From a virus, in IMG/VR virus record IMGVR_UViG_3300008108_000118: a DNA stretch of 64,000 nt; one strand, 5' to 3'. The notes under the pieces were generated by a model. It was not told the DNA's origin. It saw only the letters and a program-made list of their open reading frames with translations, and made no database searches. Within the stretch, counting starts at the first letter, position 1, and each line of letters opens with the position of its first letter. Shown here in pieces: positions 4,854 through 61,811 of the stretch. Made by a program: the position numbers and the translations under genes.

Positions 4854-6149
4854 ATGAATCAATTGGGTATAATAGTATCAAAAGAGGATAAAGAATACAT
4901 CGAAGAATGTATACAATCTGGCGAGGTACTAAAGGAGGATTTAAGAAGGTGGTTTAAGGAAAAGTGGGTTGATGTAAGTAGAAAAGTTGATGGTAAACAT
5001 CCACCATGTGGACGTAAAAAAGCAACAGGTAAAGGTTATCCAAAATGTCGACCAAAAAAGAAAGTATCAAAAGAAACACCTAAAACCGCGGGATCATATT
5101 CTAAAAAAGAAAAAAAGGCAATGACTTCTCAAAAAAGAAGAGCAGAAAAAAAAGACCCGAAACCCGGTAAAGGAAATAAACCAACATTTACGAGATATGT
5201 AAATGAGGCCTTCGATGTTGATCCGAATGAATATAAAAAAATACTACAAACTAAAGATTTTTTATTAGTTGTTCCATTTACACATAAAGCATCTTGTAAA
5301 TATGGTGCTAATACTAAATGGTGTACAACTAAAAGACATGACGATGAGGATTTTGAAGATCATGTTTCATCGGGTGTATTAGCGTATTTAATAGTAAGAA
5401 ACCCTGAATATAGAGATAAATTAAATAATTCAAAATTTGCATTATTTAGATATAAAGGAGAAGAGGGTGATGAAGATGGTTTGGTTTACACTGAATTAAA
5501 TAATGAATATCCAATAAAGTGGTTTAAAAACTTAATGGGTAAAAATGGTTTAACAGATGATTATTCTGAAATAATTGAAAAATATAATAATTTTTATAAA
5601 AAATATACAAACATGGCGTTAAATGAAAATATAGTTAAAAAATTAACTAATTTAGTTATGGAAGAATTAAGTAATGAGATAACTTTTGAAGATTTAGAAA
5701 CACTAAAAAAAATAAATAAGTTCGTTAAAAAACAAGAAGTAATTGATTGGTTTAATGAAAACGATATTGAGTATTTTGACATGAATGATATGGAAATGTA
5801 TATAATGTACATCGAAAAAAACATGGAGGATTCTGAAGATTTAGGATCAGTAGAAGAAACTGACTTTATTGCTGATGATTTATTAAATGAGGCAGAATAT
5901 CAAGGACGTAAAGTTCAATTAGGTAAGATCATGCAAGGTGATATTAAGAAATTTAAAGTATACGTTAAAAACGATAAAGGAAAAGTTGTTAAAGTTAATT
6001 TCGGTTTCGGTGGTAAATCTGCCAAGGGAAAAAGAATGGTTATTAAAAAGAATAACCCTGAAAGAAGAAAATCATTTAGAGCAAGACATAATTGTGACAA
6101 TCCAGGTCCTCGTTGGAAACCAAGATATTGGGCTTGTAGAACATGGTAA
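4854..6149 (+). CDS. paralog-family protein A (core motif KYGANTKWCTT); basic Cys-containing N-region and a C-terminal FRARHNCDNPGP...YWACRTW motif
   Basis: Shares the block L-x-P-x-T-x3-S-x-K-Y-G-x-N-T-x-W-C-T...F-x-Y...G-h-h-h-h with ORFs 21896..22756, 54534..56093 and 59961..61811. Confidence 0.65.
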   Translation: MNQLGIIVSKEDKEYIEECIQSGEVLKEDLRRWFKEKWVDVSRKVDGKHPPCGRKKATGKGYPKCRPKKKVSKETPKTAGSYSKKEKKAMTSQKRRAEKKDPKPGKGNKPTFTRYVNEAFDVDPNEYKKILQTKDFLLVVPFTHKASCKYGANTKWCTTKRHDDEDFEDHVSSGVLAYLIVRNPEYRDKLNNSKFALFRYKGEEGDEDGLVYTELNNEYPIKWFKNLMGKNGLTDDYSEIIEKYNNFYKKYTNMALNENIVKKLTNLVMEELSNEITFEDLETLKKINKFVKKQEVIDWFNENDIEYFDMNDMEMYIMYIEKNMEDSEDLGSVEETDFIADDLLNEAEYQGRKVQLGKIMQGDIKKFKVYVKNDKGKVVKVNFGFGGKSAKGKRMVIKKNNPERRKSFRARHNCDNPGPRWKPRYWACRTW

Positions 6150-6590
6150 TTAATAAAAGATAATTTTAATATCACATTCATTAAGGAGTTCTAAACTCCT
6201 TTTTTGTTGCTCTTCCCACATCTCTTTATTGTTTGTTGTACAAACCTCTTTACAATAAACTGTTTTTATACCCGAGTTAACAATACCCCTTGCACAATCC
6301 ATACAAGGTAAACCCGACGTAAGATATATTGTTGAATTTTTTAATGAAACACCTATTCTTGCTGCGTTATATATGGCATTACGTTCCGCATGTTCAAACC
6401 AGAAGTATTTTTCGGGTCTTTCCTGACGTTCTTCTTTTGAATCATATAAACCCCTTGGGAATGAATTATAACCTGTAGAAAGGATCTCATTATCCTCACC
6501 AACTATAACTGCACCTATTTGGGTGTATTTGTCTTTTGACTTTAACTTAACCTGTTCTGCGATCCCCAAAAAATAGTCTTTCCAATCCAT
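6150..6590 (-). CDS. cd: deoxycytidylate (dCMP) deaminase
   Basis: Zinc-binding motifs HAERNAI and PCMDCA are typical of the CMP/dCMP deaminase family. Track ORF starts with TTG at 6614. The ATG at 6588-6590 overlaps the upstream stop in an ATGA overlap. Confidence 0.85.
   Translation of the reverse strand: MDWKDYFLGIAEQVKLKSKDKYTQIGAVIVGEDNEILSTGYNSFPRGLYDSKEERQERPEKYFWFEHAERNAIYNAARIGVSLKNSTIYLTSGLPCMDCARGIVNSGIKTVYCKEVCTTNNKEMWEEQQKRSLELLNECDIKIIFY
6183..6206 (+). terminator. intrinsic terminator for the plus-strand gene ending at 6149, embedded in the 3' coding end of the convergent dCMP deaminase gene
   Basis: AAGGAGT-TCTAA-ACTCCTT hairpin followed by TTTTTG. Confidence 0.5.
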
Positions 6591-6916
6591 CACATTAATT
6601 TTTGTGGAGACCAATATTGTAATCTATTATCTGAATACCTATCCAATCTACGAGCCTCTTTTTTCTCGATAAGTTTATTAATTTCTGTCATGTGTTTTTT
6701 ATTTCTAATATCAACACCGACAATGTATCCTCCGTCCGATTTTTCATATGTTGTTTCAAATATGAATTTACCCTCATCATCTTTTTTTAATAGTTCAACA
6801 ATACCATTTTTGGTATCATTTTCTTTCTTATAAATTTTGTAGGGAATCGAACGTAATTCAATTAACTTTTGAAGAACGTCTAATCTTAGTTTTTCGTATT
6901 CATTTTCATCTGTCAT
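6590..6916 (-). CDS. hypothetical protein, 108 aa
   Basis: ORF with TTTG-N20-TATATTTG promoter-like elements ending 4 nt before its ATG (possible leaderless mRNA). Confidence 0.5.
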   Translation of the reverse strand: MTDENEYEKLRLDVLQKLIELRSIPYKIYKKENDTKNGIVELLKKDDEGKFIFETTYEKSDGGYIVGVDIRNKKHMTEINKLIEKKEARRLDRYSDNRLQYWSPQKLM

Positions 6917-6920
6917 TTAA

Positions 6921-6958
6921 CAAATATAACGAATAAAACAATAAACACCAAAATTAAT
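6921..6958 (-). promoter_or_regulatory. putative Bacteroidota-type sigmaA promoter (TTTG-N20-TATATTTG) abutting the start codon of gene 6590..6916
   Basis: Minus strand reads aatTTTGgtgtttattgttttattcgtTATATTTGttaaATG. Only 4 nt lie between the -7 box and the ATG. Confidence 0.4.
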
Positions 6959-7197: not shown

Positions 7198-8937
7198 TTA
7201 TCTTAATGTATCCAAGCTAAATGTAGTTAAACCATTTACTGTGATAGTACCGAAGTAACGGTTGTTAACCATTTTCTTCGCGTATCTTGTCATGATACCT
7301 TTGATAGGTGTCATTGTGAATGGATTATACATTGTTGGAGTCAACTGTAAAGGTACGTATGGAGCGTAGATGTAACCAGCGTCCAATAAAGATTTACCTT
7401 TATGACCAATCAAGATCTTATTCGCAGGGAAGTAAGGATCACGATAAACTTGGTAACGACCAGCAAGTGAACCTACTTTTTCGATACCCATGTTATATTG
7501 ATCTTGCTCAGGAGCTGCGTTTGATACGTGGAAATACTCTAAATCATCGAATACTGCAGAAACTTCTGAAGAAACAACGATCCAGTTAGCACCACCTCTC
7601 AAAGTAGTCTTGTGGATTTGAGCAGAAATTTGGTTGATCTTGGTAACCAAAGTTTGGTTCCAGTCTTTCTGAGTGTAACCTTGAAGAGTTGCACCACCTG
7701 TTCCACCATATTTCCATTCGTTATAGTCACATTTAGCCGTCCAAGCTGCACCTTTTCTAAGGTCACGTAAGATTTCACGATCAACCTCAGCTGCGATTTG
7801 CTCAGATAACAATGCTGTTAACTCAGCTTCAGCGTCGATGTTGTGGAATGCACTTACGTCTTGAGCCAATTCAGGAGACCAAGTAGCTCTCAACTTTCTT
7901 TCAGTAACAGAAACTGTTACAGATTGAAGATCGAAAGAAACTTCACCAATTTCATCTTCGAATTCTAATGTTTCATACACTCTGAAGTGTAAAACGAAGT
8001 CAGCAAGAGCGAATGTACTATTAAGTGTTGTGTTAGAGTAACCGGACACAGAAGAATAGTTTTGTAAATCTACTTGAACATAAATTGTTCCTGTTTCATC
8101 ACAAATGTCATTATACTTAGCAGTACCACCCATAGCACCTGGGAAAGTAGCTGTTGATTTTTGACCGTATTCAACAATACCTTTACCGTATTTTTGAGTT
8201 ACGATATTGAAGTTTTTAGAAACACCACTGAATTTAATTTCAGCAGATGCTAAAAATTCTTCAGTATCCATAATCTGACCGTTAGGTCCAATTAATTTAC
8301 CTTGACCGTCTTTAGCGAATCCGGTGAACGTAAGAATTAATGAAGGAACGCTTTGACTATTTAATGAACTTAATGGACTTACAGGTGTAGCCACACCGTT
8401 ACTGAAATTAACTACACTAGCAGCATTCATTGTGATAGCACTGAATCTACCTTTAGAATAATCGAAAAGTCCTGTGTCAGGTGCGTTACCGTCACCAGTC
8501 TCATAGAAACGATCATAAAGGTTTACTCCAGTATATCCATCATCAGCAGAACCTGTTCCACCAGGAATACCATATGGTGTGTAGTGTGATCCACTGTTTC
8601 TTTCCTGAATTTTAGGAATGAAGTAGAATAATTTACCGATAGGTAAGTTCATAGCTTGTACAGACACGATGTCATTAGCTAATAATTTAGAGAATACACG
8701 TCTGATGATTGGGAATACAACAGTTTCGAAAGAACCTGATGCATCCGCAACCGCAGCTTCGTTGATTAAGTATGAAGCTTGGTTTTCATACAATTGTGCA
8801 ATGTTATCTTTTTGGTGACCATCAAGACCTTCTAAAAAGCCTAAGTCATCCCATTTTTTAATGGTATCTTCTTTGATAACACGAAGGTGCTTAAGACCGA
8901 TGTTACCAACCATACCTGATTCTAATAATGCTCCCAT
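7198..8937 (-). CDS. major capsid protein, T4 gp23-like
   Basis: Blocks ATWSPELAQDVSAFHNIDAEAELTALLSEQIAAEVDREIL and YIYAPYVPL...TRYAK align with T4 gp23 (AAYSIELAQDLRAVHGMDADAELSGILATEIMLEINREVV; YYAPYVAL...TRYG). Sits at the end of a terminase-portal-protease-scaffold block. Confidence 0.9.
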   Translation of the reverse strand: MGALLESGMVGNIGLKHLRVIKEDTIKKWDDLGFLEGLDGHQKDNIAQLYENQASYLINEAAVADASGSFETVVFPIIRRVFSKLLANDIVSVQAMNLPIGKLFYFIPKIQERNSGSHYTPYGIPGGTGSADDGYTGVNLYDRFYETGDGNAPDTGLFDYSKGRFSAITMNAASVVNFSNGVATPVSPLSSLNSQSVPSLILTFTGFAKDGQGKLIGPNGQIMDTEEFLASAEIKFSGVSKNFNIVTQKYGKGIVEYGQKSTATFPGAMGGTAKYNDICDETGTIYVQVDLQNYSSVSGYSNTTLNSTFALADFVLHFRVYETLEFEDEIGEVSFDLQSVTVSVTERKLRATWSPELAQDVSAFHNIDAEAELTALLSEQIAAEVDREILRDLRKGAAWTAKCDYNEWKYGGTGGATLQGYTQKDWNQTLVTKINQISAQIHKTTLRGGANWIVVSSEVSAVFDDLEYFHVSNAAPEQDQYNMGIEKVGSLAGRYQVYRDPYFPANKILIGHKGKSLLDAGYIYAPYVPLQLTPTMYNPFTMTPIKGIMTRYAKKMVNNRYFGTITVNGLTTFSLDTLR

Positions 8938-10332: not shown

Positions 10333-11016
10333 CTATTTTGATAAAAATGTATCTAGTCTACCCATTAATTTTTTCATTCTATCATCAACAACAGGTTTTC
10401 TCTCAATTGTTTCTTGATATTGTTCTCTGTCTTTTAAATCACTAAACACATATGCTCCGGGAGTCGATGGTGAGGAGACTAAGTCAAAACACACTAATTC
10501 AAAATCATCTTGTACTATGTTTTGTCCTTTTATATTTTTCAATGATCCTACACCTCTTGATGAAATACCTAAAGTGGCACCATTCATAATTAACATTGCC
10601 GCTTGATCACCTCTTGTACTTACGATACCCATTTTTTTCCAACCTGGTGATGTAAATAATTTAATTTTACCCATTAACATTTTACCATCCCACCATGTTT
10701 CAATGATTGAATGTGATACTCTATCTAAATCAATTAATGAAGATGAGGGGTGATTTAATTCATTTAAAGCACCACCTTTTTTTATTAAAGATTGATATTT
10801 TTCATTTTCTCTTTTTAATAAAACTTCAGGATAAATTCTACCATTTTTGTTTGGGGTATCGTATTTCTGTAAAACAGCAAAAAGGATAAGGTCTTGCGAA
10901 AAGTCCATATCCTTCATTTCTGAAATTATTTTTTTATTATCTTCTGGTGAGATATGGCCGGCATCATATTCTATTAATATACCATGTCCGGTTTCTTTTG
11001 GTCCTAATATCTTCAT
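10333..11016 (-). CDS. prohead core protease (T4 gp21/peptidase U9-like), putative
   Basis: Position between core/scaffold genes. Candidate catalytic His (LNELNHP) and Ser (GISSRGVGS) motifs. NGRIYPE motif present. Confidence 0.55.
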   Translation of the reverse strand: MKILGPKETGHGILIEYDAGHISPEDNKKIISEMKDMDFSQDLILFAVLQKYDTPNKNGRIYPEVLLKRENEKYQSLIKKGGALNELNHPSSSLIDLDRVSHSIIETWWDGKMLMGKIKLFTSPGWKKMGIVSTRGDQAAMLIMNGATLGISSRGVGSLKNIKGQNIVQDDFELVCFDLVSSPSTPGAYVFSDLKDREQYQETIERKPVVDDRMKKLMGRLDTFLSK

Positions 11017-12525: not shown

Positions 12526-14367
12526 TTAATCGTTTAATATATCTTTTATTTTATTTTCTATTTCATAAATATTCTCTTGTGCCTTATTAAAATTAAATAA
12601 ATCATTTAAATCTTTTTTTTCATCACCTAACATACTTAAAATTTTACTTTTTTTACTTTTGTTTTCACCTTCGGATAGTGTCTCTCCTCCACCTCCACCG
12701 GCTGGTGGCGGCGGTGCTGCTGATGCTCCTCCACCCATATCCATTCCACCACCTCCAGGTGATTCACTACCCGCTGATCCAGACGCCTCTAATTTCTTCC
12801 TCTCTTCTTCCGGTATACCGTATTTTCTATCAACTTCATCAAACACACCCGAACGTTTTATTATGTTCTGTGTATTTGTTAATTCAAATCCGATCGCTCT
12901 TTCAAGACGTTGTTGTTCTAAGTCTAATATAACTTCATTATCACTAAAACCTAAAATATTTTTCTTAGCCCAAGTATGTGAAACAGGTAAAATACCTATT
13001 TGTGATTGGTCGGATGTTGCATCTTTATAAAGAGTTATTTTTTCTTTCCATTGTTCTATTTTTAACAAATCAGACTGAGAGGAAGGATTTGTTAAAGATA
13101 ATTGGAAATTATGTAGTTCATCCTCCAAACCCACAAGTGATAGGTGTATTAATGCAATTTTATTTAATTCTTGAATTAATGATTTCTGTATTTTATTAAT
13201 TGTTCTGGCAAATCTAATATCCATTAATGCCAAATTCTTACCATCCCCAACAACTTCCTCAAAACCTAAAAACGCCTTAGGAATTCTAAGTGCCGCCAAC
13301 ATTTTCTTTTGAATATATTCAATATCGGCAATTTCACCTAAGTTCTGTGCTCCTGCCAATGTTTCAATTGGATTTGCGGCTGAAGGGTCACGAACGGGAA
13401 TAAAATAATCTTGATCAACGGCCATTTGATTATATCTCATATCGACTTGACCGTTTTTAGGATCAGGTACCGCTTGTCTTTTAAATTTATTTGCAACTCT
13501 TTGTACATATGGTTCGATATCCTTATCATCCATATTACCAACAAATATTTTAAATACACGTCTCTCAGGTGCTCTTGATGTTCTATAAATTAACATTGCG
13601 TCTTCCGCTAATAGAAGTTGTTTCCAAATTCTTCTAATTTTATCTAACATAGAGGTACCATATGGTAATTTTCTATCGTCACCCAATAACCTAAAATGAG
13701 CAATTTCCCAGGCTTGGAATTCCATGTCTTTATTTTTCCACTGAAATCTTAACTCTCTTGTTGGTATTTTAATATCTCTTTGATTTGGTGTTTTAGAAGA
13801 CGCGCCTTCAATTCTTTCTATCTCTATGTTTGGTAATTGTTGACAACCAACAATACCATCTTTAGGGTCTATTTTAAGGTATACAAAATCATCACCATAT
13901 TTACAAAGACCTCTCGTCCACATTTGTAGATTTGTTGCTATGTCTAACTTATTATTGAATAGATCTTGTAGTATGGATTTAACTCTATCTGATTCTGAAT
14001 ATATTGTTAAAATTTCACCTTTTTCTGATGGTGTCGTACTTTCTTCTGCGTATATATCCAATGCCGCGGAAATTTCGGGTGTGAATTCCATTGATTCATA
14101 ATCATAATATGCGGCCAATCTATTTGGTTCATAATAAACAGATTGATTATATAATGATTGATCTAATTTAGCCCACTTATCTGCAATATATTGACTTTGT
14201 TGGGATTGTAATAAAGCCGAATCATATTCTTCTTTACTACTTGTTTTTAATAATTCTTCTTTAGAGAAATTAAATGACGGATTTTCTGGTTGAGTAGGTT
14301 TATTTTGACCAACAAAACCAAACATCTTGGTTAATTTCTGAAATACTGTAATATTTTGATCTGCCAT
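12526..14367 (-). CDS. portal protein (T4 gp20-like by size and synteny)
   Basis: 613 aa. Immediately downstream of the large terminase and upstream of the prohead core genes. Gly-rich C-terminal tail. CTATTTATAAAC motif directly before the ATG. Confidence 0.6.
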   Translation of the reverse strand: MADQNITVFQKLTKMFGFVGQNKPTQPENPSFNFSKEELLKTSSKEEYDSALLQSQQSQYIADKWAKLDQSLYNQSVYYEPNRLAAYYDYESMEFTPEISAALDIYAEESTTPSEKGEILTIYSESDRVKSILQDLFNNKLDIATNLQMWTRGLCKYGDDFVYLKIDPKDGIVGCQQLPNIEIERIEGASSKTPNQRDIKIPTRELRFQWKNKDMEFQAWEIAHFRLLGDDRKLPYGTSMLDKIRRIWKQLLLAEDAMLIYRTSRAPERRVFKIFVGNMDDKDIEPYVQRVANKFKRQAVPDPKNGQVDMRYNQMAVDQDYFIPVRDPSAANPIETLAGAQNLGEIADIEYIQKKMLAALRIPKAFLGFEEVVGDGKNLALMDIRFARTINKIQKSLIQELNKIALIHLSLVGLEDELHNFQLSLTNPSSQSDLLKIEQWKEKITLYKDATSDQSQIGILPVSHTWAKKNILGFSDNEVILDLEQQRLERAIGFELTNTQNIIKRSGVFDEVDRKYGIPEEERKKLEASGSAGSESPGGGGMDMGGGASAAPPPPAGGGGGETLSEGENKSKKSKILSMLGDEKKDLNDLFNFNKAQENIYEIENKIKDILND

Positions 14368-14419: not shown

Positions 14420-16195
14420 TTATTTACGTTTAGTAAATAACCAAGAATATTCTTTATATATGTCTTTTCCAACATTCATTGTGTTATCTTTGTGATAAAA
14501 ACTATTATCCATTGCTAATGCACCTATTGGGTCTAAAGTTGTTCCATATGAATAAAAAGTTTTATTGGCTTCATATGTTCTTTCGGATGATACCCAAGAT
14601 TCTAACATTGCTTTATTAGTTGAATCGGCTCTTTGTAATTGATTAAAACAAATTTCACCAGCATATAATGCCATGGATAGACTCATAATAGAATCATCGT
14701 GAGATCCCTTCATATGGTCTGGTCTACCGTTTATGTAAACAAATGTGTTTAATTCATTTAGTAATCTATTTGATCTAACAATAAAACCTTTTCTTAGTTG
14801 TTCTTCAAATGATGCGACTATCTGGGTTCTTTTATTGTTAAAATTAATACCGGGAATTTTTTCCATCGCTTTCTTATTGTATTCCCAAATATTTTGTGTA
14901 TTAATACCGTCAATATAAATGTTTTTATAATTTAATTCTTGTAATTTTCTTGATGTTGCAACACCCATACCACCAGTTATATCCACAACCACAAAGGCGT
15001 TTCCATAAAGGATACCCCATTTATAAACAATTGACGCTAAATCATCTGGTGGTATTTTACCAATATATTCTAACACCTGTTCTCTATCATCAAAATCAAT
15101 AATATTGATCGAAGAAAAATCTTCACTATCACCTCTACTCACATCAACACCCATAATATAACGATGACCCTCAACTGGTTCTTTCCATTGCCAAAGTGTA
15201 CCTTGCATGTACTTTTCCATTGGTTGTCTGATCATATTTTTTGCAATATTTTCTTGGGTTTCACTTGGAATAACACCATCACCTGAACCTAAAAAGTCAC
15301 ACTCCAATTCCTGTGCAATTTTACGTCTATCATATTTGAATTTTTTAGACATTGATTCAAACCAAGATGAAAATGGTTTATATCCTTGTTCTTCATATTC
15401 TCTATATTTTTCAACATCAAAATCATACATTACCACTTCATCATCATTATATTGTTCTCTATTCAACATATAATGACATATGTCAGCACATTTAACCCAA
15501 CGTAAGTCTTTAGTGTAACGAGGGTCTTTAAACCATCTTAAATCTGTTATATGGAAATCATTTATACCACGTAACGCTTGGTCATAAACACCATAATAAA
15601 TCGGATCATAACCATTTGGTGTTGATATAAGAATAATCTTACCACCCGTAGATAGTGACGCCATAGATGCCGCCCAAAAGTCTTCTCCCGCTTCAATATA
15701 TGCCGCCTCATCAAATACAAGTATCGTTGGTGTGTAACCACGTAATGCATCCGCAGATGTCGCAACCGCTTTAACTTCACATCCATTATTTAATCTAAAT
15801 CTACTTTCTGAGTTTTTATCAGGGTGAAAACCCACATTAATCCATTCTGGCCATTGATCCAAGAAATGTCTAACTTTATTGGCCATTTCAATCGCGGTAT
15901 CTCTCTTATTCGCAATAATCAGAACCCTTTCAGGATTTTCGGGTTTTGCGGTTTGGAGTTTTTTTGAAATCCAAGCGGCTGTTACTGTAGATACACCCGC
16001 CTGTCTATATTTTCTTGTTATATTTTCATTATAAGTTTCATAATCCTTAATCAATTGAACTTGATCAGGAAACAATTCTAAGGGTACGAATTTCTTTTGT
16101 GTATTATCATAAGTTGTTAAGTATGTTTTTAAGGCATACGGAGCATCTTTGATAATCTTAGCGTATTCTTTTAACTGTTCAATCTTTGTGTTCAT
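14420..16195 (-). CDS. terminase large subunit (gp17-like)
   Basis: 591 aa. ATPase-like YRQAGVST(V)T region resembles the T4 SRQLGKT Walker A. C-terminal nuclease-like IMGVDVSRGDSEDFSSINIID. Lies upstream of the portal gene. Confidence 0.75.
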   Translation of the reverse strand: MNTKIEQLKEYAKIIKDAPYALKTYLTTYDNTQKKFVPLELFPDQVQLIKDYETYNENITRKYRQAGVSTVTAAWISKKLQTAKPENPERVLIIANKRDTAIEMANKVRHFLDQWPEWINVGFHPDKNSESRFRLNNGCEVKAVATSADALRGYTPTILVFDEAAYIEAGEDFWAASMASLSTGGKIILISTPNGYDPIYYGVYDQALRGINDFHITDLRWFKDPRYTKDLRWVKCADICHYMLNREQYNDDEVVMYDFDVEKYREYEEQGYKPFSSWFESMSKKFKYDRRKIAQELECDFLGSGDGVIPSETQENIAKNMIRQPMEKYMQGTLWQWKEPVEGHRYIMGVDVSRGDSEDFSSINIIDFDDREQVLEYIGKIPPDDLASIVYKWGILYGNAFVVVDITGGMGVATSRKLQELNYKNIYIDGINTQNIWEYNKKAMEKIPGINFNNKRTQIVASFEEQLRKGFIVRSNRLLNELNTFVYINGRPDHMKGSHDDSIMSLSMALYAGEICFNQLQRADSTNKAMLESWVSSERTYEANKTFYSYGTTLDPIGALAMDNSFYHKDNTMNVGKDIYKEYSWLFTKRK

Positions 16196-16252: not shown

Positions 16253-17572
16253 TTATGATAGATCAATACCTAAGCCACCAAGGAAATCTTTTAAATCATC
16301 ATCATCAGTTTCATCTGAGATATCTGTAAGTTTATCGTCAAATTCACTCATCGATTCTTCATAATCATAATTTCTTATTTCCGCCTCTATAGAATCAACA
16401 ATAATTTTCATTAAATTTCTACCATTTTCTGATCCTGAAATAACTTCTTTCATGAATACTAAAAATTCTTTAGCTGGCTTTTTAACTATATGTGAAAATA
16501 ACATTAATTGTATATTCTTCTTATTTTCATCAGTTAACACATCTTCTGGTATTTGACTTCTAATTCTATCCCATATCGCTGGACCCAATCTTAAATCCCA
16601 AATTTCTTTTTCCATTGTGTTTTCACTACTAATTACTCTTTGAGCAATTTCAGGATTACGCGATTGTCCTTTAATTGCAGCAATCACTTCAAAAGTACCT
16701 TTTATTAGTTCATGAACCAATATTGGGAAATTCAATCCTTGTGCCATTACTTTTGGTGGATTTGAATTAGGGTCAATACTTTCTTTACCTCCAACCATAT
16801 TACCACCACCTCCACCACCCATGGAAGCTTTCATTTGTTGATCACTGACTTGCCAATATAATGTATCATTAATTGACATTAAAATACCATATTGATTAAT
16901 TAATGATTCTGAACCGGTAATTTCTCTAATTTTATCTGTAACATAATGATACATATAATGACCTCTTTTCGATGCACCTTGTATCATACTACCAATTAGT
17001 CTTGCTTTAGCTTTTTCTAAATTTAATGTTTGTAAATCATCAAATAATTCCTGTTCAATTTCGACCTCTTCCATTTCAGGTTGTTGTTGACCCGGTTGAT
17101 CTCTATTAAAGTCCTGAGTATCAATTTCACCCATACCAACAATTTTTGCCTCAAACTCAATGTCACCTTCCTCAATTCCAAATTCTTTCATGACCAAATC
17201 AATTGCCAATCTTTCTAATTCTTCTCTATGTTCTCTTTCGGTTTGAACAATTTCATTATGTGCCATCATCATGGTTTGCATTAATGGCATCATATTTTGC
17301 ATACCAACCATTGGTGTTTGAATGTTAGTATATTGTCTAACTTTCTGAACAACTTGTTTATATCTCTCTGAAGCCAAAAGTTCCTGGAAATTTTGATTTG
17401 GTTCATTACCTGTTTTAGGTAAGGGAATTTTTTTCAAAGGAGTTTCACCTTGACTAAGTTTAGACTGTACACCAGAATCGGGCCTATCGGCAGAATCAAA
17501 ATCCATTGCCATTTCTTCAATATTTTCTTTAACTAAAGATAGTAAATTTTTTTTGCTTATAACAATTTTCAT
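16253..17572 (-). CDS. hypothetical protein, 439 aa (acidic; Met/Gln-rich segments)
   Basis: Long ORF upstream of the terminase. No family recognised. Confidence 0.55.
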   Translation of the reverse strand: MKIVISKKNLLSLVKENIEEMAMDFDSADRPDSGVQSKLSQGETPLKKIPLPKTGNEPNQNFQELLASERYKQVVQKVRQYTNIQTPMVGMQNMMPLMQTMMMAHNEIVQTEREHREELERLAIDLVMKEFGIEEGDIEFEAKIVGMGEIDTQDFNRDQPGQQQPEMEEVEIEQELFDDLQTLNLEKAKARLIGSMIQGASKRGHYMYHYVTDKIREITGSESLINQYGILMSINDTLYWQVSDQQMKASMGGGGGGNMVGGKESIDPNSNPPKVMAQGLNFPILVHELIKGTFEVIAAIKGQSRNPEIAQRVISSENTMEKEIWDLRLGPAIWDRIRSQIPEDVLTDENKKNIQLMLFSHIVKKPAKEFLVFMKEVISGSENGRNLMKIIVDSIEAEIRNYDYEESMSEFDDKLTDISDETDDDDLKDFLGGLGIDLS

Positions 17573-20055: not shown

Positions 20056-21159
20056 TTATTGATTTGATAGAGATAATTTTTTATCGATTATCTTACTTTT
20101 TAAATCTAATATTTTTTCTATATACCCATTTCTTCTAAGTAACTTGAATGTTAAGTTTTCATATGAGTACTCACCACCAGATTCTAAACCACTCTGTCTA
20201 AAGTTTTTTATCTTCTTATATAAGTCTTTAGTTTCTTTTGTTATATCATCACCACTTTCCATTTTAGATAATAAATCATCTATTTGCTTTCCATATTCTT
20301 CACCCTTTTGTAATATTTTTTTATCATCTATTTTTGGATTTGTCTTTTCAGGTGTGACAACCCATTTGTTATTTAATATAGAGTAAACACCAGATGATAC
20401 ATGTTCTTGATGAATATCTTGAACGTATATTTCAAGATCAAAACCTTTTATTTTAATGTCGTGTTTCGATTTCCAAACTTTTTCTTTTGAATCAAAAAAA
20501 TCTTGAACTATTTTATGTAAGATAGTGGAATCTTCTTTTTCTTTATTATCAAATTCATCCATGTCAACTAATATGTGTAAATCAACATCTGAAAATTCCG
20601 ACCAATTATAGTTTGCCAAAGATCCGGTAAGAACTATATCGTGAATAAAAAATTCAACATCAATAAAATCTAAATATTCATTGGTGATTTCCAATAGTTT
20701 TTTTCTAATGTCGTCTTTAATAACATATTCTTTCCCAACTCTACGAAATATGTTTGGACATAATGTATCTTTACTTCTAAAAGATTTAATTATCTTTTTA
20801 TCAACTTCCTTGTCTTCAATTAGTTCTTCAAATAAAGATTTTTTTGGTTTTTTATTTAAAATATAATTAATCAAGTTAATCATATTTTCAGATGTAAAGC
20901 CCTGAGTACCTATCGTACCATTTGGTCTTCTAAGTAATTCTATTGGAACCAATTTAAATTCACCATCAATAATTGATGGAATATTATCAACTTTTAAAAG
21001 ATTAAGTAAATTCGACCTGTGATTACCATCTGATATGATATATGTATCGTCTGGCATTTTTGATAAAGTAACAGGATCTGTTTTTACGTATTCGTAAATT
21101 TTTTCAATTTTATCGGGATCCTCTCTTAATTTAAAAATTAGTTCTTTAAATTCACTCAT
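20056..21159 (-). CDS. two-domain protein: N-terminal ParB/Srx-like (DGNHR motif) plus pol-beta-superfamily nucleotidyltransferase (GS-x9-SDVD)
   Basis: IISDGNHRSNLL resembles the ParB-like DGHHR/DGQQR box. LTGSLANYNWSEFSDVDLHILVD is a classic NTase hG[GS]...[DE]h[DE]h motif. Confidence 0.55.
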   Translation of the reverse strand: MSEFKELIFKLREDPDKIEKIYEYVKTDPVTLSKMPDDTYIISDGNHRSNLLNLLKVDNIPSIIDGEFKLVPIELLRRPNGTIGTQGFTSENMINLINYILNKKPKKSLFEELIEDKEVDKKIIKSFRSKDTLCPNIFRRVGKEYVIKDDIRKKLLEITNEYLDFIDVEFFIHDIVLTGSLANYNWSEFSDVDLHILVDMDEFDNKEKEDSTILHKIVQDFFDSKEKVWKSKHDIKIKGFDLEIYVQDIHQEHVSSGVYSILNNKWVVTPEKTNPKIDDKKILQKGEEYGKQIDDLLSKMESGDDITKETKDLYKKIKNFRQSGLESGGEYSYENLTFKLLRRNGYIEKILDLKSKIIDKKLSLSNQ

Positions 21160-21471: not shown

Positions 21472-21831
21472 TTAATTAAGAGAAATTAGTTTTTCCAAAG
21501 TTTTTTTCTTTGAAATTGGTAATGTTAATTCTAACACACCATTTTCGACCTTACCTTCAATTTGATTTTCATTTACCTCATCAGGTAAAGTGTAGGTTTT
21601 TGTGAAGTTTGGTACAAATGTCGAACCACCTTCTTTTTCAAAAGTGATTTTCAAAATACCATCTTTTGTGGTGATCTTGAGATCACTCTTGGTTAGTCCC
21701 GGTACAGGAATAGTTACAACATAACCTGTTTCATCTTTATTAACTTTGGTTTTCGGAACATTAAGTTCTCTTTCAAATTCAAACATTTTATCAAATGCCT
21801 GAAAAAATGGGTCTTTAAATAATGTAATCAT
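21472..21831 (-). CDS. small heat shock protein (Hsp20/alpha-crystallin family)
   Basis: 119 aa. C-terminal ENGVLELTLPISKK matches the sHSP G-V-L-T-h-T-h-P-K signature. Confidence 0.8.
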   Translation of the reverse strand: MITLFKDPFFQAFDKMFEFERELNVPKTKVNKDETGYVVTIPVPGLTKSDLKITTKDGILKITFEKEGGSTFVPNFTKTYTLPDEVNENQIEGKVENGVLELTLPISKKKTLEKLISLN

Positions 21832-21895
21832 AATTATTAATTTTAGTAACCCATTTTCAATTTTTATACCATAAAGATACTGATGACATTTTGTC

Positions 21896-22756: not shown

Positions 22757-22820
22757 ACGTTGTTTACTATAATTATCAATTTTTGTTAATAATTGATTTT
22801 TTTTTTAATTTAAAATAACG

Positions 22821-22828
22821 TATGTTTG
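22821..22828 (+). promoter_or_regulatory. TAnnTTTG (-7 box, TATGTTTG) upstream of the ClpB-like gene
   Basis: Motif lies 18 nt before the ATG at 22847. Weak -33 element. Confidence 0.3.
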
Positions 22829-36955: not shown

Positions 36956-36958
36956 AAT

Positions 36959-44851: not shown

Positions 44852-45109
44852 TTACTTAAGTGGATTTCCTTTACCTCTTTTTAATATAGATCCAACAACA
44901 TCACTCCATTTAGTTACACCAACTTGATTTGATGGTCCTCTAGTTACACCACTTTCCCATTTACCAACTTGTGGATATCCCGAACCCCCACCACTTGATG
45001 ATGTACCCGCACTAGGTGCTGCTGCCGCATCTTGTTCACTTATCTCTTCTTCCTCCAAATCTTTAGAGAGAATTAGTTTAAGTTGTTTTTCATTTATTAA
45101 AACTTTCAT
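44852..45109 (-). CDS. hypothetical protein, 85 aa
   Basis: AAGTATTTATAGTAG lies immediately upstream of its ATG. Confidence 0.45.
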   Translation of the reverse strand: MKVLINEKQLKLILSKDLEEEEISEQDAAAAPSAGTSSSGGGSGYPQVGKWESGVTRGPSNQVGVTKWSDVVGSILKRGKGNPLK

Positions 45110-53865: not shown

Positions 53866-54486
53866 ATGGACACAAATATTAGTATGTTAGGTGCAATAAT
53901 AGTTGCGGTAATTTCAACAATAATAGGACCAACTATTATGGAATATGTTAAACAAAAGTTTAGAAAGAAAAAAGGTGATTTAATAAAAAAAGATTTAGAA
54001 AAAAATGTAATTGTTGATCAAGAATTGAGATCCATATCTGAGGTATTAGATGCCGATAGAGTTTGGATAACACAATTCCATAACGGAGGTCATTTTTTAC
54101 TTTCAAATAAATCTATTCAAAAATTTTCAATAACATATGAAATAACAAAAATTGGTGTTAGTCCAGCGAGTCAAGTTTTTAAAGATATTCCCATATCTTT
54201 ATATTCAAGAGCAATGAATAAAATTTTAGAAGATGGTTACATTTATGTTTCCGATTTTGATAATCCTTGTATAGAATCATATTGTTTAAAAAGTGCGGCA
54301 TATGCCACCGGAACTAAGTCCAGTTATATTGTGGCATTAAATGATATTGTGACCGACAGGTGTATCGGTACAATTGGTGTTGAATATTGTAATAAAAAAG
54401 AGTTGCACCAAGACGAAATTGAATTTATAACAGAAAAAAGTAATAGAATTGCGGGATATCTATCAGTATTTTTAAAAGAGAAATAA
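53866..54486 (+). CDS. membrane-anchored hypothetical protein (N-terminal TM), 206 aa
   Basis: N-terminal helix GAIIVAVISTIIGPTIM. Confidence 0.45.
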   Translation: MDTNISMLGAIIVAVISTIIGPTIMEYVKQKFRKKKGDLIKKDLEKNVIVDQELRSISEVLDADRVWITQFHNGGHFLLSNKSIQKFSITYEITKIGVSPASQVFKDIPISLYSRAMNKILEDGYIYVSDFDNPCIESYCLKSAAYATGTKSSYIVALNDIVTDRCIGTIGVEYCNKKELHQDEIEFITEKSNRIAGYLSVFLKEK

Positions 54487-54533: not shown

Positions 54534-56093
54534 ATGAAAATAAAAAATTTGATTTATGATTTATTGTTAGAGGAAGTTAAAAACAAAAAACTTCTTGACT
54601 ATCTCTCAAACAAATGGTTTGGTGAAAATCCAACACAGGAACAAAGAATAGAATCTGAAAAACTATATACTGAATTCCAAAAAATACAAAACGGTCTGTC
54701 AACAAAAAGACCTCAAGTAATTTCATTTTTAACTCGTTTTGATGGTAATCACGGTTTTAGTGTGTTTGATCCAAATAATCTTAGAGATATTACAAAATAT
54801 ACGTTACAACAAATAAGATCATTAGTTGACGAATATAGAGATGATGATTTGGATCTTGGAGGAGATGTTTTTTCTGGTAAAGACACAAAACCAACGACCG
54901 AAAGATTAGATGCTTCTAAATCACTATGGGAAGGAGATCAAAATTTAATAATAAATGAAGGCGGTCTTAGGGTTTATGACATTAAAGATCAAAAAATGTC
55001 AGTTAAGTATGGTTATTATGTTGAAAATGTAAATAAAGACCAAGGTGGTACCATGCCGTGGTGTGTGACATGGAGACCTGATCAACCAAATAGAACAAAT
55101 ATGTGGGGTCATTACAGAAGTCAAGGAAGAAGTTTTTATTTTGTTATTGATACCAACAAAAACCCTAAAAAAGACAGATATTATTTAGGTGCATTACAAA
55201 GAGTAAAAAGTAACACAACTGGTTTTATTTTAACATCTGTTTTAAATGATGGTGATAATACAATGTCTTGGGATCAAATAATTGGAATATATCCACAATT
55301 AAAAAATTATAAAGAATTATTCATAGAAAAACCATATAGTCAAGATGAATTGGAGGAAAAAAATATTGTAGGTCAAATTACAGAAAGACCAGGTAGTCAA
55401 TATGAATTTAGAAGAATGGATAGACAACTTAAAAAGGCATATATCAATAATCTAGGTACTTTAACTTTACCTGAATCTTGGCAATCAATGGACGAAAAAC
55501 TAAGAGCACTTTATATTACAACAACTAGAGAAAATGATATAACCAATAAATTTAGTAATTTATCATTTGTAAATGAAATAAAAAAAGTTGGTAACGAATA
55601 CACTTTACTTAAAAATAGATTAATTGCCCTTAAAAAGAGTCCCGGTTTCATTATTGAACATTTAATGAAAAATGAATTTGATATCGTTATGAGAAATGTT
55701 GCTAATGATAATATCAAATTATTACAAAGTAAAAACACAAGAAAATATGGTTTATTCGATTCGTTAAAAAACGATTGGGTAAAATTAAATGGTGTTGAAT
55801 ATTTTGTTAATTATCAAAAAATAGATCATAAAATAGTTGAGGACGATAATGGAACCGAATATTTCCTTCATGTATTTTCAACATCACCAGAACCAAATCA
55901 ACAATCATTTTATTGTTTATATGATTCAAATAGTGAAGTATCTAGTGGACAAATACAAGATTCTTATTTTGTATCTAAAAATAAATGGGACGATTTAATC
56001 AAATCAGAGAAAATAATCGATGATGAAATGATGGCAACATCTAAAGATGTTGATTTGGGTACAGATTCCGACATAAAAGAAATGTTTAAATAA
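54534..56093 (+). CDS. paralog-family protein D (divergent core GGTMPWCVTW ... FYFVIDT)
   Basis: Shares the W-C-[TV]-T core and a downstream aromatic/hydrophobic strand with the other three paralogs. Confidence 0.5.
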   Translation: MKIKNLIYDLLLEEVKNKKLLDYLSNKWFGENPTQEQRIESEKLYTEFQKIQNGLSTKRPQVISFLTRFDGNHGFSVFDPNNLRDITKYTLQQIRSLVDEYRDDDLDLGGDVFSGKDTKPTTERLDASKSLWEGDQNLIINEGGLRVYDIKDQKMSVKYGYYVENVNKDQGGTMPWCVTWRPDQPNRTNMWGHYRSQGRSFYFVIDTNKNPKKDRYYLGALQRVKSNTTGFILTSVLNDGDNTMSWDQIIGIYPQLKNYKELFIEKPYSQDELEEKNIVGQITERPGSQYEFRRMDRQLKKAYINNLGTLTLPESWQSMDEKLRALYITTTRENDITNKFSNLSFVNEIKKVGNEYTLLKNRLIALKKSPGFIIEHLMKNEFDIVMRNVANDNIKLLQSKNTRKYGLFDSLKNDWVKLNGVEYFVNYQKIDHKIVEDDNGTEYFLHVFSTSPEPNQQSFYCLYDSNSEVSSGQIQDSYFVSKNKWDDLIKSEKIIDDEMMATSKDVDLGTDSDIKEMFK

Positions 56094-59057: not shown

Positions 59058-59918
59058 TTATAGAATTGATTTTCCGTTAAAAGCAATTGCTTCAGATAAA
59101 ATACTTAAAGTATTTTTACCGGTAAAACTGTGATATCTTTCAAACATTTCTTGTAAGAAACCTTTAATACCACCCCAAACATTTCCAGCGACATTTGCCG
59201 CCTTATTTGCAAAACCAGTCACTCCCTGTTTAACGGTGTTGTACGCACTACTTACAGTTTGTTTGGCTTTATTATATGCACCTGATGCCCAACTTGCTGC
59301 CTTATCCCAAGCAACACCAACTTGATTTTGTATTGTACCCCACTGTTGTCCCAACCAACCTGAAACAGCACCACCAAATTCTTTAATAGCAGCGGCACCG
59401 ACTAATATTTTTGCCCATGCCTGAACACCAAATTGTTTGAATGCCTGTATAACCCACTTAACAACACCGAATGTAGCTTCTTTTGCTGAGTTAAGTCCTT
59501 GTAAAATAGCTTGTGATCCTTTTTCGATTGCGATACCAGCCGCTTTCAATGCATCCATTCCCGATTTTCCAACTGCTTGAGCACCACTAACAACGGCCTT
59601 ACCTGTTGAGGCCAAAAATTTCAATATTGCATTACTAACCGCCGCACTTACTTTGTAAAGACCTTTACCTATTAAATAAACAACAGTTGCACCTGCAATA
59701 AAAATGTTAAATGTTATTTTACCTATCGTTACCACAATTTGTTTACCTATATTAACAGCCTTTACAGCTGCGGTATTTACCGCTTGTCTGACTTTCTGTC
59801 CTGCTTGTGTACCGGTTTGAACACCTTGATTATAACTTTGTTTAATGTCTTCTTTGAGGATTATTTCATTTATCAAATCCTTTAATTGGGATTCCGTTAA
59901 TTTAACTACTCTAGCCAT
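59058..59918 (-). CDS. hypothetical Ala/Gly/Lys-rich protein with central hydrophobic segment (possible virion protein)
   Basis: TATTTATAAATA lies 11 nt upstream of the ATG within the 22-bp repeat. Confidence 0.5.
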   Translation of the reverse strand: MARVVKLTESQLKDLINEIILKEDIKQSYNQGVQTGTQAGQKVRQAVNTAAVKAVNIGKQIVVTIGKITFNIFIAGATVVYLIGKGLYKVSAAVSNAILKFLASTGKAVVSGAQAVGKSGMDALKAAGIAIEKGSQAILQGLNSAKEATFGVVKWVIQAFKQFGVQAWAKILVGAAAIKEFGGAVSGWLGQQWGTIQNQVGVAWDKAASWASGAYNKAKQTVSSAYNTVKQGVTGFANKAANVAGNVWGGIKGFLQEMFERYHSFTGKNTLSILSEAIAFNGKSIL

Positions 59919-59928
59919 AATGTTTTTT

Positions 59929-59950
59929 ATTTATAAATATCTTGACTTTT
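59929..59950. repeat. 22-bp repeat ATTTATAAATATCTTGACTTTT (copy 2)
   Basis: Identical to 24862..24883. Confidence 0.8.
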
Positions 59951-59960
59951 ATAAAAAAAA

Positions 59961-61811
59961 TTATTTTATTACTTTTTTAAATTTAATAAAACTTTCAAAT
60001 AACTGATAATTTGTCACATATGACGCTAAATTTTCTACCTTAACATTACCTCTGTAAGATTTACCTGTGTCTTTATTTTGAAAATGTATCTCGACTGATT
60101 TTTCAGAACAGTCAACACCAGATAATATTTTTACAATCACATGTTCATTTTCAAAAAAGTCTTTATTTTTGAAAATTTTACTATATACATCATTAAATTT
60201 TTGTCTAACTTCTAAACATTCTTTTGTTACCTCACCATCATCTATTAATTCTTCAAAAAATTTTTCAACATCATATTCCATTTTATCCCATCCTGCGGTT
60301 TCCCCCACATATTCATAAATGTATTCATATTCCGTTTGAACATTATTATCCGTTATATAATCCTCAATTATATTAAGTAAATCGGATCCCCCTTCCCCAT
60401 CCATTTTTGTTATGTTATTTTTAACCAAATATTGTACAAAATATACAATATTTAATTCGACGTTAGAATTACGATAACCATTATCTATTTTTATATACTT
60501 TTCAATATCATTTATTAATTTTTGTGCCTCAGCTTCAAAACTTTCTTGATTTAATCTCGTTGATTGATCTAAAAATTCTTCTTGTATTTTGCTACTTTTA
60601 TAAAAAATTTCAAAATAATCTTTTTTAAATTGTTCATAATTAAAAGAACCTAAACCTTGTTTTACTTTATCTGAATTTTCTTCATAATATTTTTTGAATA
60701 AAGGTTCAAGTTCAATTGCAACATCATCATCATTATAAAATCTATCTCTTAAATCATCATATATTCTATCATAACTACTATTAATGTCCCCATTATACCC
60801 CGCAAGTACACTTTCCACATCACCAATTGTACTATAACTTCTGTAAGAATCTACTTCGAAATTAACATATCCACCACCAATCTGAATATCAACTAATCGT
60901 TCATGTTCTATCTTTTCTTTCAATCCATCTATATTATTATTTAATAAATCATATACAATTGGATTTGATGTTGCATCTTCAGAAATTGATTTTTTCAATA
61001 ACTCAAGTGAATCTTCACCACTTAAAACAGTCATTCTTTTTATTTGAGCATCTATTTGTTTTTGATCAGTAACATTTGTAAAAAGTGATGGGAAAAAATA
61101 TTTTTTAATTTCGGGATTTTCATTTAAAAAATCACCAGTATTAATTTGTTTGTCAGCCGGATTCATGAATTGTTTAGACTCAAAATGAAACTGATACTTA
61201 TCATTTTCATTTGTTTTATTAATCATAATAAACAATGGTCCCTGTGTGTTATATCTACTGAAATAATTATCCTTACCCTTATGTTTATCATTTAAAGAAT
61301 ATGGACCCCATGTTGTACACCATTCAGTATTAACACCTAAATAACACGATGCCCTTTCGGTTAATGGTTGAACAATATACCAATTTTCTCCGTTATGTAA
61401 AATTTTATATTCTTGTTCAGATAAAGATTTTAATATCGTAGATATATCTCTTTTATCTTGAACAATGTATTTTTTAACTAAATCATATAAATCACTAAGT
61501 TGATTTACTTTATTTATGTCTACTGCTATTTTGTGTTTATATAGATACCCAAGATAATCCTTGGCTCTATCTAAATCTTCCAATTTCAATGTACCCTTAC
61601 CATATAATAACAATAATAATTTAGAATACTTTCCAATTCTTTGTACCCTTTTTTCAATACTTGTATCAACTCCCGGATTTACCGCTGATTGTGGATCTGC
61701 TGAAATTACTTTAATAAATGTTGCGGGAGGTATTTTACTATAATATTTTGTATATATCTCACTGGGGGTGGCCTCAACTAATAATTCCTCAAATAGTAAT
61801 TTTAATTTCAT
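59961..61811 (-). CDS. paralog-family protein C (core YLGVNTEWCTTW ... LFIMINK), 616 aa
   Basis: IVQPLTERASCYLGVNTEWCTTWGP...YFSRYNTQGPLFIMIN aligns with paralogs A and B. Confidence 0.6.
   Translation of the reverse strand: MKLKLLFEELLVEATPSEIYTKYYSKIPPATFIKVISADPQSAVNPGVDTSIEKRVQRIGKYSKLLLLLYGKGTLKLEDLDRAKDYLGYLYKHKIAVDINKVNQLSDLYDLVKKYIVQDKRDISTILKSLSEQEYKILHNGENWYIVQPLTERASCYLGVNTEWCTTWGPYSLNDKHKGKDNYFSRYNTQGPLFIMINKTNENDKYQFHFESKQFMNPADKQINTGDFLNENPEIKKYFFPSLFTNVTDQKQIDAQIKRMTVLSGEDSLELLKKSISEDATSNPIVYDLLNNNIDGLKEKIEHERLVDIQIGGGYVNFEVDSYRSYSTIGDVESVLAGYNGDINSSYDRIYDDLRDRFYNDDDVAIELEPLFKKYYEENSDKVKQGLGSFNYEQFKKDYFEIFYKSSKIQEEFLDQSTRLNQESFEAEAQKLINDIEKYIKIDNGYRNSNVELNIVYFVQYLVKNNITKMDGEGGSDLLNIIEDYITDNNVQTEYEYIYEYVGETAGWDKMEYDVEKFFEELIDDGEVTKECLEVRQKFNDVYSKIFKNKDFFENEHVIVKILSGVDCSEKSVEIHFQNKDTGKSYRGNVKVENLASYVTNYQLFESFIKFKKVIK

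Follow-up and report, generated by a model that had tools for sequence, protein, structure and literature searches.

Related systems in mobile genetic elements

The PcfJ-like domain (PF14284) is named for pcfJ of the Enterococcus faecalis plasmid pCF10. Besides C. elegans pCFJ plasmids, our literature searches returned a single passing mention of PcfJ, in a DGR survey, and none among the papers listed when directed at plasmids and anti-defence. GNAT acetyltransferases possess a complete β1-β6 core with a Q/R-x-x-G-x-G/A acetyl-CoA loop. In phage T4, the internal proteins and Alt are packaged and injected, and their N-terminal capsid-targeting sequence is cleaved at L/I-x-E. Phages and conjugative elements also produce polyvalent proteins, single polypeptides with at least two distinct effector domains (Iyer et al. 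2017, PMC5512222); the name PcfJ is absent from the main text of that paper, in which no description of the domain presented below was found either.

The DNA analysed here, a 64,000-nucleotide stretch (hereafter the window) of an uncultivated large phage, viral record IMGVR_UViG_3300008108_000118, encodes four proteins sharing a domain, termed WC, that we read from profile comparisons and structure models as a divergent Trp-Cys branch of the PcfJ-like superfamily, the relation being distant.

Four paralogs in the window

The region has no megablast match among GenBank phages. The T4-like affiliation suggested in a preliminary description agrees with the presence of T4-like head genes together with a head maturation protease. 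The four open reading frames listed there are all present, at 4854..6149, 21896..22756, 54534..56093 and 59961..61811, and encode proteins of 431, 286, 519 and 616 aa (A, B, C and D, respectively). Each contains one copy of a domain of ~130 aa with the common block P-x-T-x2-A-S-(C)-x-Y-G-x-x-T-x-W-C, and no fifth copy turned up when every stop-to-stop frame of 40 aa or more in the window was scanned. Pairwise BLASTP on the block is significant for A-B (2e-12), A-D (5e-8), B-D (3e-8) and C-D (2.6e-5), and not for A-C or B-C. An HMM of 263 domain copies from outside proteins and zero window sequences, although these copies had been gathered via a profile that contained window sequences, recognises B (E 6e-35), D (5e-31), A (5e-29) and C (2.5e-6) in a search space of one million. 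A chance or low-complexity match in an AT-rich genome (30.7% G+C, with proteins rich in Lys, Asn and Glu) could be invoked for a resemblance in which A-C and B-C lack pairwise significance, and was named at the outset as what might undo the proposed family. Its probability is negligible in view of the HMM E-values (1e-29 to 1e-35 for three members, 2.5e-6 for C), of homologues numbering thousands and of a common fold predicted confidently. The four are true paralogs, built around an invariant Cys/Trp core.

Paralog A (4854..6149, plus strand) starts with the C-terminal part of DUF5872 (aa 13-100), followed by the WC core (aa 116-255, 5199..5618, plus strand, W156/C157), delimited by the outside-only HMM and the motif position, and by a basic, Cys-containing C-terminal module (phrog_7595, aa 350-431), neither DUF5872 nor phrog_7595 having an assigned function. 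The C-terminus of the upstream ORF (4350..4841, plus strand) corresponds to positions 1-39 of the DUF5872 profile. One TAA and four codons separate this ORF from A, whose frame it shares, so it may represent an N-terminal portion detached from A. Paralog B (21896..22756, minus strand) consists of an N-terminal helical module, the WC core (aa 125-255, 21992..22384, minus strand, W169/C170), placed by the same HMM and modelled by AlphaFold2 with a pLDDT of 92.8, and a short tail. It is divergent from a ClpB-like gene and has an Hsp20 gene downstream. Paralog C (54534..56093, plus strand) is the divergent member, with an 11-residue insert ahead of the G-x-x-x-W-C loop of its core (aa 127-275, 54912..55358, plus strand, W176/C177) and no P-x-T. 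Paralog D (59961..61811, minus strand) has an N-terminal helical module (aa 9-119, 61455..61787, minus strand), the WC core assigned by the HMM (aa 127-239, 61095..61433, minus strand, W164/C165) and a C-terminal region of 370 aa in which no domain was recognised.

The helical module, with the consensus DPT..KYLkW ... KDINkYksf.eL, precedes the core in B and many outside members as well, and an HMM of 154 upstream segments matches it in D (7e-9) and B (4e-5). The four proteins, previously considered dissimilar apart from the block, are indeed so outside it, except that B and D have this extra ~110-aa module in common where A has DUF5872 instead. Similarly, the spacer of about 15 aa reported between W-C and F-x-x-Y suits C and D (13-17 aa) but only about 7-9 aa separate these motifs in A and B. 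Among PHROGs, phrog_17056 is matched by A (2.4e-4), B (2.5e-12) and D (2.7e-8) and phrog_28193 additionally by A, while C matches neither; both clusters, listed as ‘unknown function’, are also matched by gp205 of the Pseudomonas jumbo phage PA5oct and by stand-alone WC forms.

Distribution and architecture of the family

At 50% identity, the family numbers 8,975 representative clusters (E≤1e-3), or 5,153 at ≤1e-10, and it is almost confined to jumbo-phage and giant-virus sequence. IMG/VR yielded 149 relatives, many on contigs of 100-335 kb, a search of 185,579 cellular genomes by the same narrow pattern gave one locus only, in a MAG, and structural matches in BFVD were jumbo-phage or giant-virus proteins without exception. 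The WC domain is a module specific to mobile elements, of which jumbo phages retain several diverged paralogs. Genomes often contain several copies (five in Salicola phage SCTP-2), or copies occur in tandem inside one protein, many relatives being proteins of 800-3,300 aa with 2-5 copies spaced by ~450-520 aa. A scan of 86 proteins revealed fusions to repeat arrays (LRR_5 in eight, also Ank, WG, LRV and HEAT) and to effector-type domains (ART-PolyVal in two, GNAT in three and lysozyme in two). At the other extreme, stand-alone forms of 150-170 aa are found among small accessory genes, one of them overlapping a ParB_N gene. No functional partner is conserved near 92 family genes in 81 viral loci, where synteny is only clade-specific.

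These architectures recall polyvalent proteins, the relatives being likewise long and multidomain, with several WC copies plus ART-PolyVal, GNAT, lysozyme, topoisomerase or repeat arrays, and one stand-alone member being coupled to a ParB_N gene. While some relatives are polyvalent by definition, A-D are single-module proteins with one recognisable core each, to which A adds DUF5872 and phrog_7595. Neither Pfam-A nor NCBIfam has a model for the core, PADLOC detected nothing, a PDB sequence search with the WC and PcfJ profiles gave no match, and our literature searches found no description of the domain.

Invariant residues and predicted fold

Residue conservation was assessed over 267 copies. 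Trp is present in 266 of 266 and Cys in 265 of 266, followed by Gly (260), Pro (241) and the Thr at -3 (241). The family motif is W-C-[T/V/I], Val following the Cys in 40 of 266 copies, and a second Cys lies eight residues upstream (C-x8-C) in two thirds of the copies. An invariant acid/base partner is absent, His, Asp and Glu being unconserved across the family in which only Gly, Trp and Cys are invariant, so the Trp-Cys pair by its Gly turn could be purely structural.

AlphaFold2 predicts the succession helix, β-hairpin, helix, G-x-x-T-x-W-C loop, helix, three-stranded meander and helices, with the invariant Cys opening a short helix and the aromatic residue just before it. Past the meander, only two Asp/Asn positions are conserved. 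Foldseek searches with such models, the check initially recommended, point to a GNAT-like fold and include a match to a ‘PcfJ like protein’ (E 2e-3). In these models the domain resembles the N-terminal two thirds of a GNAT acyltransferase and, judging by the order of secondary structure elements, the invariant loop would occupy the place of the GNAT α1-α2 acceptor-binding loop. Nevertheless, it is very improbable that this is a bona fide GNAT acetyltransferase diverged past sequence recognition. The WC domain stops after the β4-α3 equivalent, without the C-terminal β5-α4-β6 arm, and has no acetyl-CoA pyrophosphate-binding motif, be it a conserved Q/R-x-x-G-x-G/A loop or any Gly-rich motif past the meander, whereas the GNAT fold has no equivalent of its conserved Cys loop. 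Identity is 3-14%, no GNAT Pfam model matches the core even at E≤10, and where relatives have a GNAT domain, the long protein in question also holds 2-5 WC copies recognised by the family HMM. With the CoA-binding half absent, a true GNAT enzyme is largely refuted and was dropped.

Relationship to PcfJ

The PF14284 model does not match the four window proteins at E≤1, but PcfJ was the only recurrent weak Pfam match in the family (4 of 43 members, sub-threshold, best E 6e-4). A PcfJ HMM built from 29 sequences, including 22 database hits of which 21 have a precomputed PF14284 annotation, matches 18 of the 267 WC copies at E≤1e-3 (best 5e-6) and none of the reversed or shuffled controls. The window proteins fall short of significance with this HMM (for the B domain, E 0.006 in a four-sequence search), and by these profile matches their link to PcfJ is transitive, via one subfamily. 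Alignment of the two profiles by hhalign lends weak support (P=0.016 across 58 columns, in matching register); with a PcfJ alignment of 12 sequences it fell short of significance (E 0.1). Word-index searching with one PcfJ module retrieved a single match. On one chain, P0124, three PcfJ modules are found together with two WC modules, and AlphaFold2 models of PcfJ and WC have the same element order, fold and topology.

PcfJ and WC domains are equal in size and order of secondary structure, and their blocks are in register, i.e. a strand, (P)-x-T, a helix, G-x-x-x-aromatic-C, a helix with Tyr and a strand with a basic end. Each is confined to mobile elements and is a C-terminal or internal module after a helical region, tandem modules also occurring. 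They also differ. PcfJ has H-C-V where WC has W-C-T/V (C-V is nearly invariant in the PcfJ alignment, with His or Asn ahead of the Cys) and E-G where WC has Y-G, and the T-x-E, Gln and Asn positions invariant in PcfJ are unconserved in WC. PHROGs treats the two as separate families, and the WC branch belongs to jumbo phages and giant viruses whereas the PcfJ sequences collected are from plasmids and metagenome contigs, although PcfJ also matches PHROG phage families. The initial description could not assign the block to a known family: it is absent from Pfam-A and NCBIfam, and PHROGs gives no function, but it can be tied to the PcfJ-like PF14284. Since PcfJ itself has no assigned function, the block has not turned out to be a known domain of assigned function, an outcome named at the outset as a refutation.

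The Trp/His interchange between the branches is better suited to stacking than to acid-base chemistry, and the domain could accordingly be a module binding a nucleotide, a nucleobase or a signalling molecule. The aromatic side chain just ahead of the Cys would stack on a base together with the conserved Tyr/Phe, and tandem copies, which do occur as multi-copy arrays alongside small stand-alone forms, would serve as sponge or sensor. We find this quite unlikely, given that the cap-binding matches cover only 57 residues and rank under dozens of GNATs, and that it leaves the invariant Cys without a reason.

Possible roles as virion proteins or host-directed modules

PA5oct gp205 is a member of the WC family (E 9e-17) annotated as ‘structural protein, ESI-MS/MS’, and its gene adjoins the terminase gene. 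The mass spectrometry of PA5oct, which its authors describe as a very sensitive technique, listed 93 proteins, seven virion-unrelated enzymes among them (PMC7318152), so the detection of gp205 is weak evidence of specific packaging. The window's phage resembles T4 in its head genes and in having a head maturation protease, but WC proteins have no sequence homology with IPI-III or Alt. A stereotyped tag with an L-x-E, MKIxLTESQL..L.E, opens many small proteins in this group of phages, stand-alone WC forms and several unrelated proteins among them; in the window the tag is absent from A and B, and a loose version is seen in C and D.

The annotation of gp205 and its terminase neighbour, the major head protein gene 1 kb from A, the missing catalytic partner and the lack of a sequence match to any enzyme family would all suit a virion domain that serves as structure or scaffold and not as an enzyme (e.g. 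a head-internal or decoration protein), whose Trp, Cys and Gly are kept for a tight turn and hydrophobic core and whose paralogs take different structural positions. This is unlikely in our opinion. A buried structural residue would not usually be kept as strictly as this single Cys is (265 of 266 copies) in clusters that otherwise share about 20% identity; the stand-alone forms have small accessory genes as neighbours, with the ParB_N overlap; fusions to ART-PolyVal, GNAT, lysozyme and LRR/ankyrin arrays typify effectors, not capsid parts; and PcfJ relatives reside on plasmids, which have no virion.

The best explanation overall, which we consider somewhat probable, is that the WC branch of the PcfJ-like superfamily is a host-directed, Cys-centred effector or recognition module, carried in the virion in some cases. 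The invariant Cys, with the preceding aromatic residue (Trp, or His in PcfJ), would form a reactive or ligand-contacting centre, the variable regions on either side of the core may choose each paralog's target, and some members are probably virion-carried and act early in infection. The plasmid loci would offer a parallel, PcfJ genes being placed there among anti-defence and establishment genes: AcrIIA9-family genes adjoin PcfJ in two of eight loci, and DNA methyltransferases, a topoisomerase and a large helicase in others. A bolder version has WC as a virion-packaged, Cys-dependent enzyme derived from half a GNAT fold (a transferase of acyl or other groups, a hydrolase or a thiol-redox switch via C-x8-C), ejected with the DNA against host defence or to take over host proteins. 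In that scheme, flanks or LRR/ankyrin arrays would aim each paralog or tandem module at a different target, the MKIxLTESQL..L.E tag would be capsid-targeting and cut at L-x-E by the head maturation protease, and PcfJ of plasmids would play the corresponding part for conjugative elements, during establishment. This version is, in our judgement, quite unlikely.

Significance

This family of jumbo phages and giant-virus bins, nearly 9,000 clusters strong at 50% identity, has no Pfam or NCBIfam model, and through its tie to PcfJ two large families without known function become one mobile-element superfamily with a GNAT-like fold. Two invariant residues, a Cys and an aromatic one, provide a handle for experiments. 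Were the domain a structural fold only, this would be a useful annotation and little beyond. If it is an injected effector, paralog expansion and repeat-array fusions would represent a widespread way for large phages to vary their host targets.

Four paralogs in a large myovirus

The window comes from an uncultivated large or jumbo myovirus with a G+C content of 30.7%. It carries genes for a T4-type major head protein (7198..8937), a portal (12526..14367), between them a head maturation protease (10333..11016, minus strand; phrog_207, E = 4e-39), and a large terminase (14420..16195), as well as a GH19 lysin gene located after paralog C and a plus-strand cluster of 23 tRNA genes (29959..37173) whose anticodons cover the 20 amino acids, with two tRNAs apiece for Leu, Arg, Gly and Met. 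Near this cluster, at 25292..26787, the gene for a 141-aa AAA_33 kinase-like protein adjoins that for a 356-aa T4 Rnl1-type RNA ligase (Pfam labels taken from the matching metagenome contig L091), a possible tRNA-repair pair. No near-identical relative of the window was found among GenBank phages; the exact paralog B protein turns up again in assembled metagenomes, where the contigs that carry it reach 0.2-1 Mb.

Paralogs A (4854..6149, plus strand, 431 aa), B (21896..22756, minus strand, 286 aa), C (54534..56093, plus strand, 519 aa) and D (59961..61811, minus strand, 616 aa) lie exactly where the preliminary description had placed them, and in a six-frame motif scan of the window they are the only long ORFs with the N/G-T-x-W-C block. 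Pairwise BLASTP of the block linked A with B (2e-12), A with D (5e-8), B with D (3e-8) and C with D (2.6e-5), the A-C and B-C pairs not being significant on their own. A profile of 263 domain copies from outside proteins, which left out the window sequences but whose copies had been gathered beforehand with a profile that did contain them, scored B at 6e-35, D at 5e-31, A at 5e-29 and C at 2.5e-6 (search space 1e6), and found no further core copy among the window's stop-to-stop frames of 40 aa or more. On these scores, paralog C, in which an 11-residue insertion precedes the G-x-x-x-W-C loop and P-x-T has been lost, is a genuine though divergent member. The pairwise and outside-profile scores thus bear out the original observation of four paralogs with a common block. 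They also reject a chance low-complexity match, the possibility that its author had raised against it.

Ahead of paralog A, the DUF5872 (PF19197) profile is divided, the C-terminus of ORF 4350..4841 holding positions 1-39 and the N-terminus of A positions 39-115. The two ORFs share a frame, with nothing but TAA (4839-4841) and four codons between them, and in two homologues from outside the window (P0004 and P0032) DUF5872 and the core lie within a single protein. The gene may be truly split, the assembly may be at fault, or the stop may be read through.

Paralog B is surrounded by a chaperone set (21472..24862), in which a ClpB-like double-AAA ATPase gene (22847..24862, plus strand) is divergent from B and an Hsp20 gene (21472..21831, minus strand) comes after B; next on the minus strand are a KTSC-domain gene and a nucleotidyltransferase-like gene (20056..21159). 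Three independent metagenome contigs have this whole order unchanged. Immediately upstream of C, and on the same strand, is a gene for a GAF-domain protein with a hydrophobic N-terminus (53866..54486, plus strand), itself preceded by an AAA_28 kinase-like gene. Directly downstream of D, 59058..59918 (minus strand) encodes a 286-aa Ala/Gly/Lys-rich protein, whose weak match to tape-measure-protein PHROGs (E = 6.5e-8) may be a compositional effect.

A large viral family

The four cores matched 39 unnamed proteins in a word-index search, including stand-alone forms of 150-170 aa, and when 1.84 billion representatives were searched exhaustively with an HMM, 8,975 clusters were matched at E <= 1e-3 (5,153 at <= 1e-10). 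In an alignment of 267 copies of this Trp-Cys (WC) domain, the core Trp is invariant (266/266) and the Cys nearly so (265/266), followed by Gly (260 copies), Pro and Thr(-3) (241 each), Ala (230) and Ser (221). In 176 of the 267, another Cys lies eight positions before the conserved one. Many members are 800-3,300 aa long, with two to five core copies at a period of ~450-520 aa. In many, a helical module of ~110 aa (consensus DPT..KYLkW ... KDINkYksf.eL) precedes the core; among the window paralogs it was matched in D (7e-9) and B (4e-5), absent from A and undetectable in C. Most Pfam matches in 86 long members are repeat arrays (BspA-type LRR in eight, also ankyrin, WG, LRV and HEAT), with occasional enzyme domains (ART-PolyVal, GNAT, phage lysozyme, poly(A) polymerase and topoisomerase I).

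The distribution of the domain is viral. IMG/VR holds 149 confirmed relatives, many from contigs of 100-335 kb, Salicola phage SCTP-2 has five copies and the PA5oct-like Pseudomonas jumbo phages have one each. Among 185,579 cellular genomes, a narrow peptide pattern, and hence a limited test, found one locus, on a MAG contig.

Probable relationship to PcfJ

No model matching the core was found in Pfam-A or NCBIfam, and no match in PADLOC or, by sequence, in the PDB; the corresponding PHROGs, phrog_17056 and phrog_28193, are both labelled function unknown. The only recurrent signal was PcfJ (PF14284), named after pcfJ of the E. faecalis plasmid pCF10. When 43 members were scanned against Pfam at a lax threshold, four matched it (best E = 6e-4), and no other family was matched more than twice; bona fide PcfJ domains occur in three of 36 long members. 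Both kinds of module, arranged in the same way, are found in the single chain of one outside protein, P0124: PcfJ three times (…EEGRMMGHCVGSYY…) and WC twice (…ASKYFGSGTEWCTAA…). An HMM of 29 PcfJ sequences (seven domain segments from P0124 and plasmid genes, P0188 and 21 of 22 database hits, all but one of the hits carrying a precomputed PF14284 annotation) matched 18 of the 267 WC copies at E <= 1e-3 (best 5e-6), and no reversed or shuffled WC copy below 0.1. The register was constant, 'f.ivPktpedl.eEGnalnHCVGs…Y…kg…IlfLRk' aligning with 'yLvvkPeT.eAScKYGsnTkWCV…F.rYt.G..gLYFIinK', and hhalign recovered 58 columns in that register (P = 0.016); an earlier comparison, for which the PcfJ alignment was thin, did not reach significance. 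Since the window paralogs themselves did not reach significance against the PcfJ HMM, the link is transitive.

Structural models point the same way. When the AlphaFold2 model of the B core (pLDDT 92.8) was searched with Foldseek, as had been proposed, matches were confined to uncharacterised proteins from jumbo phages and metagenomic 'Marseillevirus' bins, with a 'PcfJ like protein' (E = 2e-3) directly behind the family's own members. Its order of elements is identical to that in the PcfJ domain of the outside protein P0190 (pLDDT 94.2): helix, hairpin, helix, Cys loop, helix, three strands, helix. In the model, the conserved Cys starts a short helix, and the residue before it is aromatic, Trp in the WC branch and His in PcfJ. 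The WC domain and PcfJ thus probably belong to one superfamily. The statement that the core cannot be assigned to a known family therefore calls for revision: the HMM, hhalign and Foldseek results and the shared P0124 chain suggest a Trp-Cys variant of a PcfJ-like superfamily with a predicted GNAT-like half fold.

Possible function

The WC domain is a compact module specific to mobile elements, which has multiplied into paralogs and tandem arrays and is fused with protein-recognition repeats or effector enzymes. Because of this pattern and the conserved Cys, host-directed effector or recognition modules fit better than capsid building blocks. The domain would present a Cys-centred catalytic or ligand-contacting site, whose target would be a host macromolecule at an early stage of infection and whose specificity would come from the variable flanks of each protein. 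An effector-type role has an even chance of being correct, and true catalysis by the Cys is rather doubtful. One member of the family, gp205 of Pseudomonas jumbo phage PA5oct, whose gene adjoins that for the terminase, has been annotated from ESI-MS/MS data as virion-associated; the study, however, lists 93 proteins, seven virion-unrelated enzymes among them, and its authors rate the technique as very sensitive (PMC7318152). As to other readings, a purely structural domain is unlikely. A nucleotide- or ligand-binding module, in which the Trp or His before the Cys would stack on a base, is quite unlikely, and a cryptic GNAT highly improbable. Among the neighbours of 92 family genes, there was no conserved partner to tell these three alternatives apart.

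One stand-alone WC gene overlaps the start of a ParB_N gene. Plasmid PcfJ genes adjoin AcrIIA9-family genes in two of eight loci, other neighbours being DNA methyltransferases, a topoisomerase and a large helicase. In both cases, an E. faecalis plasmid (L002, 1292..3330) and an Alicyclobacillus plasmid (L006, 1..1785), PcfJ is directly downstream of a 'Cas9 inhibitor AcrIIA9 family' gene, whose stop overlaps the PcfJ start in the former. The two Bacillota plasmids are distant, and the two genes may form a conserved pair.

A stereotyped N-terminal tag, MK[IV]x[ILV][TS]E[ST]Q[LYF]..h..E, seen in the window and in loci L014-L055, opens the stand-alone WC proteins and several protein groups with no obvious relation to one another (about 77, 172-174, 206, 275 and 363 aa). 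It is carried by 49 of 3,328 non-family ORFs of related viral loci, against ~0.3 expected from its internal frequency. In the window it is found on 44852..45109, 59058..59918 and 61824..62918 (all minus strand) and, in a looser form, on D (59961..61811, minus), C (54534..56093, plus) and 16253..17572 (minus); 61824..62918, D and 59058..59918 are consecutive minus-strand genes, each starting with one form or the other. L/I-x-E is the T4 prohead-protease site and, because it occurs within the tag, the latter may be a capsid-targeting or processing signal.

The caution on function in the preliminary description was appropriate. The profile searches led to no known domain with an assigned function and, since PcfJ itself has none, the link does not explain the WC domain. 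What the link does is unite two large orphan families and point to residues for mutation.
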